Counted from the stretch's first letter, positions 11,356-62,122 are shown. The stretch: 64,000 nucleotides of DNA from an uncultured Candidatus Rokubacteria bacterium (GCA_963765195.1 CAVXVV010000088.1:358529-422528); one strand, 5' to 3'. Made by a program: numbers and translations. The notes: generated from the letters alone by a model not told the origin.

Positions 11356-11626
11356 GGTCGGCACTCGCGCCTGGATTCGGGGAGGTCTCACCAACATCAC
11401 CGCCTACGCCGCGCCGAAGAGCCAGAGGAGACGATCTCGACCACCGGAACGCCGAGGTGATATAGGACTCGAGCCCGCAACGGCACGTCTCCTTCCCGCG
11501 CACGCATCGGCGCGCGTGACTACCTCACAGGCAATCCCTGTGCCCGCAGCGTTCCGGAGTCGAGTCGCGGCGGCGCCGGCGCAACATTGCGCCGGAGGTC
11601 CATGGTGTCGCGGTCGGGGTGCCACG

Positions 11627-11644
11627 GTGTCGCCACGGCGACAC
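11627..11644. repeat. perfect 18-bp inverted repeat GTGTCGCC-AC-GGCGACAC in the 5' leader of the AI-2E transporter gene
   Basis: Read directly from the sequence. Additional half-sites GGTGTCGCG (~11604) and GGCGACATCGC (~11646) flank it. This is a member of the recurrent TGTCG(C)/(G)CGACA palindrome family. Confidence 0.6.
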
Positions 11645-11864
11645 GGCGACATCGCGCGCAGCTAATTTGAAGCGCCGAGAAGGCGTCACGTGGCGCGGCA
11701 CGCCATTCGCACTAGGCGTTGCAGAGAGGAACCTAGTGCGCCCTTCATTACATCGGTCCGCCAGCAAGGAGCTTTCCGAGCAGGAACCGGCGATCGGTCC
11801 CGGCCTCGGGATCAGGCGCGCCAGCCGCCGCGACACGGACTCGACCTCATCGCGCCTTCACGGC

Positions 11865-59638: not shown

Positions 59639-60766
59639 GTGTATGATCGCGCCGTGAGCCGGCGCGATGGCCGAGCGTCCGGATTGCGCGCTCTTCCGTC
59701 CGAGCCGGGGCGGCGACATGCTCCGGCGTCCGGCAGAATTGCCCGAGAGTCCGAGGCCGGCGGCGGGCCGGCCGGTGATCCCCTGTCGGACGTGCTGCGC
59801 TCGATCAGGCTGACCGGGGCGCTCTTCTTCCTCGTCGACGCCTCACCGCCCTGGCGCATCGCGCTCCCCGACGGCAAGGCCCTGGCGCCGGCGGTGCTGC
59901 CGCGCGCGCAGCACATCATCTCGTACCACGTCGTGCGGGAGGGGGCCTGCTGGGGCGGCGTGATCGGGCAGGCGCCCGTGCGGGTCCAGGCGGGTGACAT
60001 CCTCGTGCTTCCGCGCGGCGACGCGTACGCCATGTCGACCGCGCCCGGCGCGCGCGGCGGGCCCGGCCTCGACGAGGTCATGGCCTTCATGCGGGAGATG
60101 GCGGCGGGACGGCTGCCGTTCGTCGTCCGAGAGGGCGGCGCGGGCCCGGAGCGGCTCCGACTCGTGTGCGGGTTCCTGGGCTGCGACGTGCGCCCCTTCA
60201 ATCCCTTGCTGGCCACCCTCCCTTCCCTCCTCCACCTGCGTCGCGACTTCCGGTCCCCCGACGACCCGCTCGGCCAGCTGGTCGACTTCACCCTCGCCGA
60301 ATCGCGCGAGCCCCGGCCCGGAGGGGACTGCGTGCGTCTGCGTCTCAGCGAGCTGATGTTCGTCGAGGTGGTGCGCCGCCATCTGGCGACGCTGCCGGCG
60401 GAGGAGACGGGGTGGCTCGCGGGCCTGCGGGACCCGATCGTTGGCCACGCGCTCGCGCTCCTCCACGAGCGGCCCGCGCATCCCTGGACCCTGGAAGGCC
60501 TCGCCCGGGACGTCGGCGCGTCGCGCTCGGTCCTGGCGGACCGCTTCGCCCACTTCGTGGGGCACCCCCCGATTCAATACCTGACGCGGTGGCGCATGCA
60601 GGTCGCGGCTCGCCTGCTCGCGGAAGGGGTGCGGAAGGTCTCCGCCGCCGCGCTCGAGGTCGGCTACGACTCCGAGGCGGCGTTCAGCCGCGCGTTCAAG
60701 AAGGTCGCCGGCGTGCCGCCCGGCGCGTGGCGTCGCCGCCACGGGACGCCCGCCGCCGGGCGCTGA
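59639..60766 (+). CDS. AraC family transcriptional regulator (cupin-like sensing domain plus HTH_18)
   Basis: N-terminal AraC-type cupin region (DPLSDVLRSIRLTGALFFLVD...GDILVLPRGDAY), a C-terminal dual HTH (LEGLARDVGASRSVLADRFAHFVG...YLTRWRMQVAARLL...VSAAALEVGYDSEAAFSRAFKKVAG). Confidence 0.75.
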   Translation: MYDRAVSRRDGRASGLRALPSEPGRRHAPASGRIARESEAGGGPAGDPLSDVLRSIRLTGALFFLVDASPPWRIALPDGKALAPAVLPRAQHIISYHVVREGACWGGVIGQAPVRVQAGDILVLPRGDAYAMSTAPGARGGPGLDEVMAFMREMAAGRLPFVVREGGAGPERLRLVCGFLGCDVRPFNPLLATLPSLLHLRRDFRSPDDPLGQLVDFTLAESREPRPGGDCVRLRLSELMFVEVVRRHLATLPAEETGWLAGLRDPIVGHALALLHERPAHPWTLEGLARDVGASRSVLADRFAHFVGHPPIQYLTRWRMQVAARLLAEGVRKVSAAALEVGYDSEAAFSRAFKKVAGVPPGAWRRRHGTPAAGR

Positions 60767-60793
60767 CGCCGGCCGCCCGCGACCCCCTGTCGG

Positions 60794-62122
60794 TCACCGC
60801 CCGACGCGAGCCCCCGTCCACACGCCACCTCCCGTCGCCGCGTCGCCGAAGCCCCACGTGCCCTCGAACTCCACGCCGCCGGGTCCGGCCCGGACGCGCG
60901 CCCGGCCCCGCGCGCCGCCCGACTGCCAGACGAACACGAGCGTGTCGCCCTCCACGATGCCCGCGATCTCGCCCTGACCGACGCCGTAGCTGTAGATGCC
61001 CGTCACGCGGTCTCCCTGCCGCCGCAGGATCGTGCGCGTCGGCAGCGTTCCCGTGCGGTCGCTCAGCCGGCCGTCGAAGACGCCGTCGAACGCCTGCGCG
61101 CTGGCCGGAGTCGGCGCCGCCGGCAAGATCTCGCCGGGGCGCCGGGGCGCCAGCGTCTCGAGGCTCACCCGCTGTCCCTTCACGGCCATGAGCCGCTGCT
61201 GGTCCGGATGGGCCAGGACCGGCACGACCTCCGCGTCGATCGCGTCCGCCGTGCCGCGAATGACTTCGGCAGCGCGCGCCGGGTTGGCCTGGAGCCGGCC
61301 GTAGTCGGCCGCGTGGGTGCGAAGGTACTCGCTGAGACGCCGCATCCGGTCGCTGGTCAGCGGGTGCGTGTCGCTCCGGAGGTGGGCCTCGTACTCCGCG
61401 TCGGAGCCGAAGTCGGCGCGGTGCGGCACGAAGTGCGCGGCGGAGAGGAACCAGAACAGCAGGCCGTCGACCGGCTGCCCGACCCGCCGGAGCACCTCGA
61501 GCGCGAACCGGTCGGCCTGGTCCTCGTTCTCCCGCGCGCGCTCCCGGGCCACTCCGGGACCGTACCCCGGATGCCGGAACAGGACGTGGCCGACCTCGTG
61601 GAGCAGGATGAAGCTCAGCGACTCGTTGAGGATCTTGCCGGAGATGAGATCCACCCGAGGATCGTCGGTGGCGGTCGCCGGGATCTGGAGCGCGGCGCGC
61701 GGATCGGGATAGCGCCCGCCGAACCGCGCCGGCGGCTGGTACTTCAGCATGGAGACGTAGTCCGTGACGGTCTCCATGGAATAGCCCCGGCTCTGGCCGC
61801 CCGTGGTCGGCGCCGGCGCGGCGACCGCCGCGTCCCCGGACGATCCCACCACGCCGGGCGGCGTCACCGCGATCTGGACCGCCTGGTGCAGCCCGTACGC
61901 GAGCACGCCGGCGCCGAACAGCGCGAAGAAGACGCCGGGCCCCACTCGCGAGATGAAGATCGAGATGCCGCCCGGGAGCTGGAGCTTGCCCGTCCCCCGC
62001 TCCGCGAGCGGCATGCTGAGGAACAGGCGATACCCGAGCCAGATGGCGAGGGCTCCCGAGAGCGCGATGACGAGCCGCTCGAGGTGCCGGGCCCCGATGC
62101 CGAGCAGCTGAGGTTCCAGCAT
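60794..62122 (-). CDS. membrane-anchored putative zinc metallopeptidase (HExxH)
   Basis: Two N-terminal TM helices, then ILLHEVGHVLFRH...NEDQADRFA (HExxH plus downstream E/D). The C-terminal ~130 aa are Gly-rich and look beta-sheet-like. Its start is 13 nt downstream of the peroxidase gene stop (62135) on the same strand. Confidence 0.55.
   Translation of the reverse strand: MLEPQLLGIGARHLERLVIALSGALAIWLGYRLFLSMPLAERGTGKLQLPGGISIFISRVGPGVFFALFGAGVLAYGLHQAVQIAVTPPGVVGSSGDAAVAAPAPTTGGQSRGYSMETVTDYVSMLKYQPPARFGGRYPDPRAALQIPATATDDPRVDLISGKILNESLSFILLHEVGHVLFRHPGYGPGVARERARENEDQADRFALEVLRRVGQPVDGLLFWFLSAAHFVPHRADFGSDAEYEAHLRSDTHPLTSDRMRRLSEYLRTHAADYGRLQANPARAAEVIRGTADAIDAEVVPVLAHPDQQRLMAVKGQRVSLETLAPRRPGEILPAAPTPASAQAFDGVFDGRLSDRTGTLPTRTILRRQGDRVTGIYSYGVGQGEIAGIVEGDTLVFVWQSGGARGRARVRAGPGGVEFEGTWGFGDAATGGGVWTGARVGR

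Follow-up and report, generated by a model that had tools for sequence, protein, structure and literature searches.

ZraR/ZraS is an envelope-stress two-component system in which a bacterial enhancer-binding protein (bEBP) works with divergent sigma-54 promoters and the regulon is essentially zraP/zraSR. Promoters of the sigma-54 type require an AAA+ activator (PMC7057263). The sites of the bEBP NifA read TGT-N10-ACA and lie at least 100 bp upstream of the -24/-12 promoter (PMC2820453), and GlrR/QseF has three TGTCN10GACA sites more than 100 bp upstream of the sigma-54 glmY promoter (PMC3045617). TGTC-N8-GACA is also the consensus of CooA, a member of the CRP/FNR family (PMC7306483). Here, we describe a recurrent TGTCG-N6-CGACA palindrome in a 64,000-nucleotide stretch of DNA from an uncultured Candidatus Rokubacteria bacterium (GCA_963765195.1 CAVXVV010000088.1:358529-422528), hereafter the window, in which positions are counted from the first letter. 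Because the motif lies about 100 bp upstream of sigma-54 promoters with a fixed geometry, it most likely serves as an upstream activator sequence (UAS, or enhancer) for a sigma-54-dependent bEBP. Judging from the DNA sequence, we give this reading a probability of about 0.85.

By inspection, the dyad is a sub-form of the NifA site TGT-N10-ACA, and both are found at least 100 bp upstream of a -24/-12 promoter; the layout in front of nifH in a metagenome locus (L187), at -124.5, is identical. The window differs from the NifA case in its stress and dormancy targets, with no nif genes, in its only bEBP, which is of the REC type whereas NifA is of the GAF type, and in a 5-bp half-site with extra half-sites flanking the dyad at N3. 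GlrR/QseF is alike in regulator architecture (REC, sigma-54 module, and C-terminal helix-turn-helix (HTH)), in its TGTC/GACA dyads, and in having several sites more than 100 bp upstream of a sigma-54 promoter. In the window, however, the spacer is 2 bp shorter (TGTC-N8-GACA), half-sites are packed 8 and 11 bp apart rather than forming three separated dyads, and the predicted regulon spans at least 16 promoters in 64 kb, compared with one or two small RNA genes. ZraR/ZraS shares a histidine kinase (HK) with a periplasmic sensor and HAMP domain, a paired REC-AAA+-HTH activator, one intergenic enhancer for two divergent sigma-54 promoters, and a stress-related output, but its regulon is small compared with the dozens of genes in the window lineage, where the HK-bEBP operon is not motif-controlled. 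The CooA dyad is identical at the level of TGTC-N8-GACA; CooA acts from about -40 at sigma-70 promoters of CO-oxidation genes, whereas the window sites lie at enhancer distance from sigma-54 promoters, and no CRP-family or CO-metabolism genes were seen in the window. The proposed mechanism is that of a textbook sigma-54 enhancer, and the novelty lies in the motif variant, the regulon, and the phylum.

Geometry and genomic position of the palindrome

Exact TGTCG-N(0-10)-CGACA matches number 7 in the window against 1.49 expected, a count reached by none of 100 dinucleotide-preserving shuffles. The spacer is N6 in all seven of these inverted matches and N3 in all five exact everted matches (CGACA...TGTCG); among spacings of 0 to 30, no other was enriched in the window. 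A preliminary description of this DNA had proposed a palindrome family at 12 coordinates, with a conserved half-site and a variable spacer. The family is real and far above chance, with ten genuine members (11627, 13667, 15324, 17600, 24972, 32436, 36951, 38672, 50839, and 51682), and its half-sites are indeed conserved. Its spacing is fixed; the apparent variation arose from mixing the inverted and everted arrangements, both formed by neighboring half-sites within a single larger element. The two remaining coordinates do not belong: 57565 reads CGACA-N4-TGTGT, and 60785 reads CGACC-N3-TGTCG in a 27-bp gap between convergent genes, both off-pattern and without a sigma-54 partner. Two further members, 848/867 and 7269, lie beyond the range covered earlier.

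Aligning 12 intergenic sites with symmetrized counts yielded a 28-bp palindrome, GWCAC-nn-TGTCG-N6-CGACA-nn-GTGWC. Flank positions that played no part in site selection are conserved (G 22/24, W, C 22/24, A 17/24, and C 16/24), and the central 6 bp of the dyad show no conservation. The 28-bp element consists of the central 16-bp dyad plus the proximal half-sites of neighboring dyads, with a 19-bp period. Full tandem dyads occur at 848/867 in the window and at 9869/9888 in a relative (L082).

Allowing one mismatch, we found 14 inverted-type sites, 12 of which are intergenic in a window where only 14.5% is intergenic by our own gene calls, made with a codon-usage gene model (binomial P = 5.7e-9). 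Each pentamer half-site has 51-72 coding copies in the window, and half-sites are 2-3.7 times denser between genes than within them; equal frequency inside and outside genes, which the preliminary description had named as a refutation, was not observed. As controls, we used 80 GC-rich pafA loci (1.41 Mb) from other organisms, mostly Actinomycetota, obtained from a PafA scan of a genome collection; relatives among the matches listed were at most 61% identical, and they served as GC-rich controls only. These loci contain one exact inverted and two exact everted matches, a density ~150-fold below that of the window, whose GC content is 70%. An Rfam search of the window found no RNA family.

An exact everted pair, CGACA-N3-TGTCG, also occurs at 33901-33913, where the convergent PsiE and holin-like genes overlap at their 3' ends. 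It is kept in a relative (L085, 5820-5832) and has no suitably placed sigma-54 promoter; the coding sequence alone may explain its conservation.

Coupling of the palindrome to sigma-54 promoters

We scanned for -24/-12 elements with the pattern TGGCAC-N5-TTGCW, keeping GG and GC fixed and scoring out of 11. Sixteen elements in the window scored at least 10/11, where shuffles gave 0.58±0.8 and control DNA 0.82 per 64 kb; at 9/11 or better there were 27, 23 of them intergenic. Fifteen promoters have a motif scoring at least 9/10 centered -52.5 to -152.5 from the predicted transcription start site (TSS), mostly at -105 to -130. The sixteenth, that of gvpA, has a four-half-site array at about -191, and the distance is equal in L085. 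Promoters with a well-placed upstream motif occur at 15 per 64 kb in the window and 12.6 per 64 kb at five loci of Methylomirabilota relatives, whereas the Actinomycetota control DNA (1.36 Mb) yields 0.09 per 64 kb. Every coupled promoter points away from its site, and the control with inward-facing orientation returned no promoter-motif pair in the window or the relatives. Four palindromic sites (11628, 15324, 36951, and 50839) serve divergent promoter pairs, which one enhancer can do because the site is palindromic.

The UAS-promoter distances are helically phased (Rayleigh R≈0.6, peak at 10.5-10.75 bp), with p = 0.003 for the window (n = 15) and p≈0.0005 when distant loci were added (n = 19), a test that rests on predicted TSS positions. 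A Shine-Dalgarno (SD) sequence and start codon lie at +14 to +62 of most predicted starts. A UAS typically lies about 70-200 bp upstream of its promoter. The locus combines promoters that lie downstream of the sites and face away from them, dyad or tandem sites with fixed spacing, dependence on the face of the helix, and a genome-encoded GAFTGA AAA+ activator with an HTH, as a UAS would. Binding sites for an abundant regulator had been one of two readings in the preliminary description, and our data support it in the form of enhancers ~50-190 bp upstream of sigma-54 (-24/-12) promoters. Its placement of sites in divergent regions and 20-60 nt past stop codons was also correct; those past the AI-2E, encapsulin, 527-residue, and EEP stops lie there because the sigma-54 promoter of the next co-directional gene is ~100 bp downstream. 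Very GC-rich palindromes near stop codons can therefore be enhancers of the next gene and need not be terminators.

Under this proposal, we infer that the motif is bound by a bEBP. A bEBP with a Fis-type HTH would bind the dyad as a dimer or higher oligomer and build an active AAA+ ring. DNA looping would then bring it to the closed sigma-54 RNA polymerase at the -24/-12 promoter ~50-190 bp away, and the promoter would be opened by ATP hydrolysis.

The arrangement is conserved in relatives. The closest sequence, a 514-kb ENA soil-metagenome contig (L081; ERZ25039464 contig_3628), is 98.2% identical over 21 kb and represents a close strain. In alignments of the pafA and gvpA upstream regions with relatives (98% and ~87%), the motif is conserved together with the downstream blocks TGGCAATCCCCTTGCA and GGGCACGTCCATTGCA, both of them GG-N10-GC promoters of the sigma-54 type. 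In L087, whose bEBP is 94% identical, the conserved islands in the CsbD and 15.3-kb divergent regions are the UAS, the -24/-12 element, and the SD/ATG, and the spacers between them have diverged, one with a 44-bp indel. Sites keep orthologous positions down to ~73% PafA identity: in L082, at 73%, motif/promoter pairs precede pafA, gvpA, and Ku. The locus with a 74% identical bEBP (L088, GCA_036004105.1) has a site between an encapsulin-EncFtn operon and HSP20, with promoters at -86.5 and -84.5, and a second site ahead of an S30AE/CSD-containing operon. At 73% bEBP identity (L090, GCA_016193045.1), one pair was found, with the full array at -129.5.

We also carried out a metagenome-wide scan with an extended DNA pattern, in which the matches listed were mostly chance hits in unrelated taxa with a GC content of 36-73%. 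Among the matches listed, sigma-54 promoters at enhancer distance scoring at least 9 were outward in 18 cases and inward in 2, with 5.7 expected; at a threshold of at least 10, there were 9 outward against 0.9 expected. One of them (L187, about 1017-1341, GC 0.64) has GCGACAC-cg-TGTCGGATTCCCGACA at -124.5 from TGGCACGGCAGTTGCG, directly upstream of nifH. This is a textbook NifA enhancer with the layout CGACA-N3-TGTCG-N6-CGACA, as in the window. L139, L096, and L131 are among the lower-GC contigs sharing the TGTCGgnaTTCCGACA variant upstream of sigma-54 promoters. The half-site arrangement may be common among bEBP enhancers beyond Methylomirabilota.

Several observations weigh against an enhancer role, in addition to the likeness to CooA considered below. 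All TSSs were predicted from the position of the -24/-12 element, and some of these calls are weak (9/11), for example 7168 and 25071. The UAS of the pafA pair is just ~52-56 bp upstream, unusually close for looping. No rpoN was seen within the 64-kb window, and the HK-bEBP operon has no autoregulatory motif site, merely a weak half-site serving the divergent promoter. The motif is absent at four classical Rokubacteria pafA loci (L001-L004); therefore, the regulon is not uniform across the phylum. Finally, sigma-54-type promoters without the motif occur at 21198-21213, 34359-34395, 53847-53862, and 57517-57532. Other bEBPs are thus probably present, and the gene for the cognate one could lie elsewhere.

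Two of these motif-free loci are conserved. At 34359-34395, two strong sigma-54 promoters stand back-to-back ~5 bp apart, GGGCACGGACGTTGCA (-) and TGGCACTCACCTTGCT (+), driving divergent holin-like and YflT-like genes; the pair is kept in L082 (17531-17568) and L085 (5342-5378). No TGTCG-N6-CGACA lies upstream of either promoter, so that any enhancer would be inside the transcribed region or belong to another bEBP. The element at 21198-21213 (-), TGGCACGGACTTTGCT, is among the best sigma-54 matches in the window (11/11). It lies 3 bp past the bEBP stop codon, drives a stand-alone receiver-domain gene (20735-21157), and is conserved in L087 (11371). Upstream of it we found no dyad, just scattered half-sites within the bEBP coding region. 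The receiver gene may provide feedback within the two-component system.

An operator for a CRP/FNR-family (CooA-like) or other dimeric factor at sigma-70 promoters, with the -24/-12 elements irrelevant or co-regulated, would account for the dyad itself, since TGTCG-N6-CGACA equals TGTC-N8-GACA, the CooA consensus in the 16-bp geometry of CRP-type sites (PMC7306483). TAnnnT-like hexamers do lie ~18 nt downstream of some sites, but no sigma-70-type promoters were predicted in 11-26 kb, and the annotated window genes (Pfam) include no cNMP-binding or CRP-family gene. The motif is tied in position, orientation, and phase to the -24/-12 elements at enhancer distances, not to -41.5/-61.5, and an AAA+ activator is needed at sigma-54 promoters anyway (PMC7057263). 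Dyad geometry thus fits such an operator, whereas promoter type, distances, and regulator gene do not, and we consider this explanation unlikely. The MrpC/CRP-type interpretation of the 16-bp dyad was likewise set aside, as position and phasing bind the dyad to -24/-12 promoters.

The other reading in the preliminary description, a family of repetitive extragenic palindromic (REP)-like or terminator/insulator elements, here extended to mRNA-stabilizing hairpins at gene 3' ends, fared poorly and appears very improbable. Several sites do lie 1-40 nt past stop codons and fold into 5-7-bp stems (-6 to -15 kcal/mol, somewhat below shuffled sequences), but no site has a T-tract behind it (the longest run of T within 30 nt downstream is 1-3 on either strand). 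The four terminator-like matches in 11-26 kb equal the shuffle expectation, and none coincides with a motif, which does not fit a Rho-independent terminator. A strictly fixed spacing around an unconserved central 6 bp is the signature of protein binding, unlike a stem-loop: the half-sites are conserved, not a stem. Copies share no backbone beyond the motif and promoter element, unlike REP copies, which resemble one another along their full length, have a conserved stem, and lie mostly at 3' ends or between convergent genes. Most sites lie upstream of gene starts or in divergent regions, their positions are orthologously kept in relatives, and the sole convergent-gene instance (60780) is a mismatched outlier. 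Mobile promoter cassettes resembling miniature inverted-repeat transposable elements were rejected because no backbone is common to the modules. That the motif is a chance by-product of GC-rich composition or codon usage has a negligible probability in our view: the half-sites are short and GC-rich and recur in coding DNA, but no shuffle reached the observed count, the equally GC-rich control DNA gave a single exact inverted match, intergenic half-sites are denser, and spacing is exclusively N6 or N3.

Candidate activator, predicted regulon, and host lineage

The protein encoded at 21216-22580 is the only bEBP in the window. It is unusually conserved, with at least 90% identity in many contigs, while PafA drops to 73% in L082. 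Across orthologs with 71-96% identity, from loci that carry the motif too, the recognition helix of the bEBP, ILGISVRTLQR, does not vary; the HTH is a generic Fis/NtrC-type helix, so that this invariance is consistent with our proposal and not diagnostic. The helix sequence SVRTLQRM does not appear to resemble that of NifA. Orthologs of the window bEBP carry the JGI label 'HydG'. The HK-bEBP pair sits among motif-controlled genes in all four lineages examined, and its operon appears to be driven by sigma-70-like promoters (TTGACG-17-TATACT in L090). By this association, the adjacent HK/REC-AAA+-HTH pair (21216-24055) is a tentative candidate for the cognate activator, at slightly less than an even chance.

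The predicted targets in the window are listed by promoter in Table 1; in relatives, the set also includes Ku, HSP20, and a ribosome hibernation factor. In L082, pafA is followed by PolX, Ku, and uracil-DNA glycosylase (11422-15728), and Ku has an enhancer at 14092-14107 and a sigma-54 promoter, suggesting that in this relative's lineage the regulon extends to DNA-repair genes. The regulon profile is one of general stress, desiccation, and dormancy. It is possible, although we regard it as doubtful, that the conserved HK and REC-AAA+-HTH bEBP act, with sigma-54, as master switch for a general stress/dormancy response throughout the phylum Methylomirabilota. If so, the response would embrace osmoprotectants, CsbD/BON, encapsulated ferritin, pupylation, gas vesicles, ribosome hibernation, and nonhomologous end-joining repair, with compact palindromic enhancers as its wiring, which often activate a divergent pair of promoters, and with some transcripts essentially leaderless. 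It would constitute a further general-stress-response architecture beside sigma-S, sigma-B, and EcfG/PhyR. Our data suggest co-induction of gas vesicles, pupylation, encapsulin-ferritin, and trehalose synthesis.

To our knowledge, Methylomirabilota/Rokubacteria are abundant soil bacteria that are uncultured and whose regulation is essentially unknown, and we found no literature linking them with sigma-54. The motif and promoter pair provides a sequence-only handle on a large, coherent stress/dormancy regulon, which allows regulon prediction across metagenome-assembled genomes. It also corrects gene starts and operon structure and names a testable candidate kinase/activator master regulator.

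According to Pfam annotation, the window encodes a Pup ligase, an NtrC-type sigma-54 activator, its histidine kinase, and MlaC. NCBI records label proteins that match the activator at 94% identity as Methylomirabilota, and those at 72-74% are labeled Candidatus Rokubacteria. The host is a Methylomirabilota (Rokubacteria) bacterium and not an actinobacterium, which earlier gene names had implied. As far as we know, Actinobacteria are without sigma-54. Actinobacterial regulators (the PafBC RecA-NDp motif, WhiA, MtrA, and DosR) were dropped in view of the sigma-54 activator, MlaC, and the Methylomirabilota-labeled 94% identical proteins.

Individual sites and neighboring genes

Table 1. Candidate UAS, predicted sigma-54 promoters, and the activator/kinase genes of the window. 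UAS distances are given from the predicted TSS.
Feature	Sequence or score	Position	Strand	Placement, genes, and conservation
UAS, two tandem 16-bp dyads 19 bp apart	848-863, 9/10; 867-882, 10/10	848-882
sigma-54 promoter	TGGCATCCCGATTGCT	758-773	-	UAS at -108.5/-127.5; SOD-like: minus-strand gene ending at position 1, weak SOD_Fe_C match
UAS dyad	TGTCGCCCGGACGACA	7269-7284
sigma-54-like promoter	TGGCACGCCGTTCGCG, 9/11	7168-7183	-	UAS at -119.5; 216-residue gene of unknown function, 6372-7022 (-)
UAS dyad plus extra GCGACA half-site	TGTCGCCACGGCGACA	11628-11651		common to divergent promoters
sigma-54-like promoter	GGGCACAGGGATTGCC	11530-11545	-	UAS at -116.5; toward PBP1-side genes; ortholog L087 20913
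sigma-54-like promoter	CGGCACGCCATTCGCA	11696-11711	+	UAS at -86.5; AI-2E transporter gene, start about +14
UAS	GTCACcaTGTCGCCCTCGTGACAccGTGAC	13660-13692		39 nt past AI-2E stop codon
sigma-54 promoter	GGGCAGCCAAGTTGCT	13801-13816	+	UAS at -152.5; CsbD-BON-DUF3309 operon; conserved in L087
UAS, full 28-30 bp palindrome	CGTCACgtTGTCGGATCCACGACAtgGTGACA	15317-15346		common to divergent promoters
sigma-54 promoter	GGGCACATGCCTTGCA	15203-15218	-	UAS at -139.5; 109-residue protein of unknown function
sigma-54 promoter	TGGCACACGACTTGCG	15413-15428	+	UAS at -107.5; ElaB-like/holin-X/DUF3618/DksA-type zinc-finger operon
UAS	CGTCACatTGTCTCGGGCGCGACAcagTGTCG	17582-17612
sigma-54 promoter	CGGCACAGCCCTTGCT	17680-17695	+	UAS at -109.5; small (84-residue) open reading frame, then PCC-domain gene
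bEBP: REC, sigma-54-interaction AAA+ (Sigma54_activat), HTH_8	GAFTGA at residue 218	21216-22580	-
Sensor histidine kinase, HAMP-HisKA-HATPase		22577-24055	-	translationally coupled to bEBP gene
Weak UAS, one good half-site	8/10	24095-24110		conserved in L087
sigma-54 promoter	TGGCATGCGCCTTGCT	24194-24209	+	weak UAS at -117.5; WXXGXW-repeat protein
UAS	CGTCACgaTGTCGTCAGGGCGACAcgtTGTCG	24965-24995
sigma-54-like promoter	TGGCGTTGGCGTTGCA	25071-25086	+	UAS at -117.5; NDP-sugar transferase, isoamylase/TreZ-like, 974-residue amylase-family protein, EncFtn, encapsulin; identical element in metagenome locus L164
UAS	TGACAccgTGTCGAGCGAGCGACT	32435-32458		28-36 nt past encapsulin stop codon
sigma-54 promoter	TGGCATGGGCCTTGCT	32530-32545	+	UAS at -105.5; M48 peptidase and PsiE
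UAS	GGACAttgTGTCGCCGGCGCGACA	36943-36966		common to divergent pafA/527-residue gene; conserved in L081, L085, L086, L082
sigma-54 promoter	GGGCACGCGCCTTGCT	36917-36932	-	UAS at -52.5; pafA, start codon ~+5 from predicted TSS
sigma-54 promoter	TGGCAATCCCCTTGCA	36989-37004	+	UAS at -56.5; 527-residue protein, faint MscS-like match
UAS array, four half-sites	CGACA-N3-CGTCG-N7-CGACA-N3-TGTCG	38653-38690		begins 1 nt past stop codon
sigma-54 promoter	GGGCACGTCCATTGCA	38834-38849	+	UAS at about -191; upstream of gvpA gas-vesicle cluster
UAS	CGACGgtcTGTCGCGGCTACGACActGTGAC	50831-50862		common to divergent promoters
sigma-54 promoter	TGGCACGCGCCTTGCC	50729-50744	-	UAS at -128.5; DPBB (RlpA-like) gene and those after
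sigma-54-like promoter	GGGCCCGAGGCTTGCT	50896-50911	+	UAS at -75.5; EEP-family phosphatase/nuclease
UAS	CGACAcgaTGTCGTCGCGCGGACA	51682-51705		19-27 nt past EEP stop codon
sigma-54 promoter	TGGCACCTCGCTTGCT, 11/11	51797-51812	+	UAS at -125.5; YegS-like lipid kinase 51841-52822, frameshift-split

The pafA start codon lies ~5 nt past the predicted sigma-54 TSS in three lineages (36902-36932; L082, 9974-10001; L085, 2794-2825), which implies an essentially leaderless sigma-54 transcript. The true PafA start is 13 codons inside a 463-residue open reading frame. The start of the NDP-sugar transferase gene at 25099 looks similarly close to its promoter (25071-25101).

The central spacer of the gvpA-upstream array (38666-38672) is N7 in the window and N6 both in the 98% identical L081 and in L085. 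The extra base pair is either an indel introduced by the assembly or a genuine mutation, in which case the dyad geometry would be disrupted. A sigma-54-like element at 38688-38703 (-), GGGCACTCGCGTTGCT, overlaps the array and faces into the 3' end of the gene that precedes it. L085 does not preserve this match, which is probably spurious.

The YegS-like lipid kinase is found in two frames, DAGK_cat at 51841-52230 and YegS_C at 52226-52822, and the split is probably a frameshift error of long-read assembly. A 1323-residue shadow open reading frame (51730-55701) overlaps several real genes. The gas-vesicle cluster (39072-47903) is complete, with two GvpA-like genes, GvpF/L and GvpG/K-type genes, and a duplicated ArsA-like ATPase; it also encloses a PAS histidine kinase and a single-domain response regulator. 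A MEDS-domain protein (47947-48747) adjoins the cluster, and the 44-48-kb segment is unusually GC-rich (77.6%).

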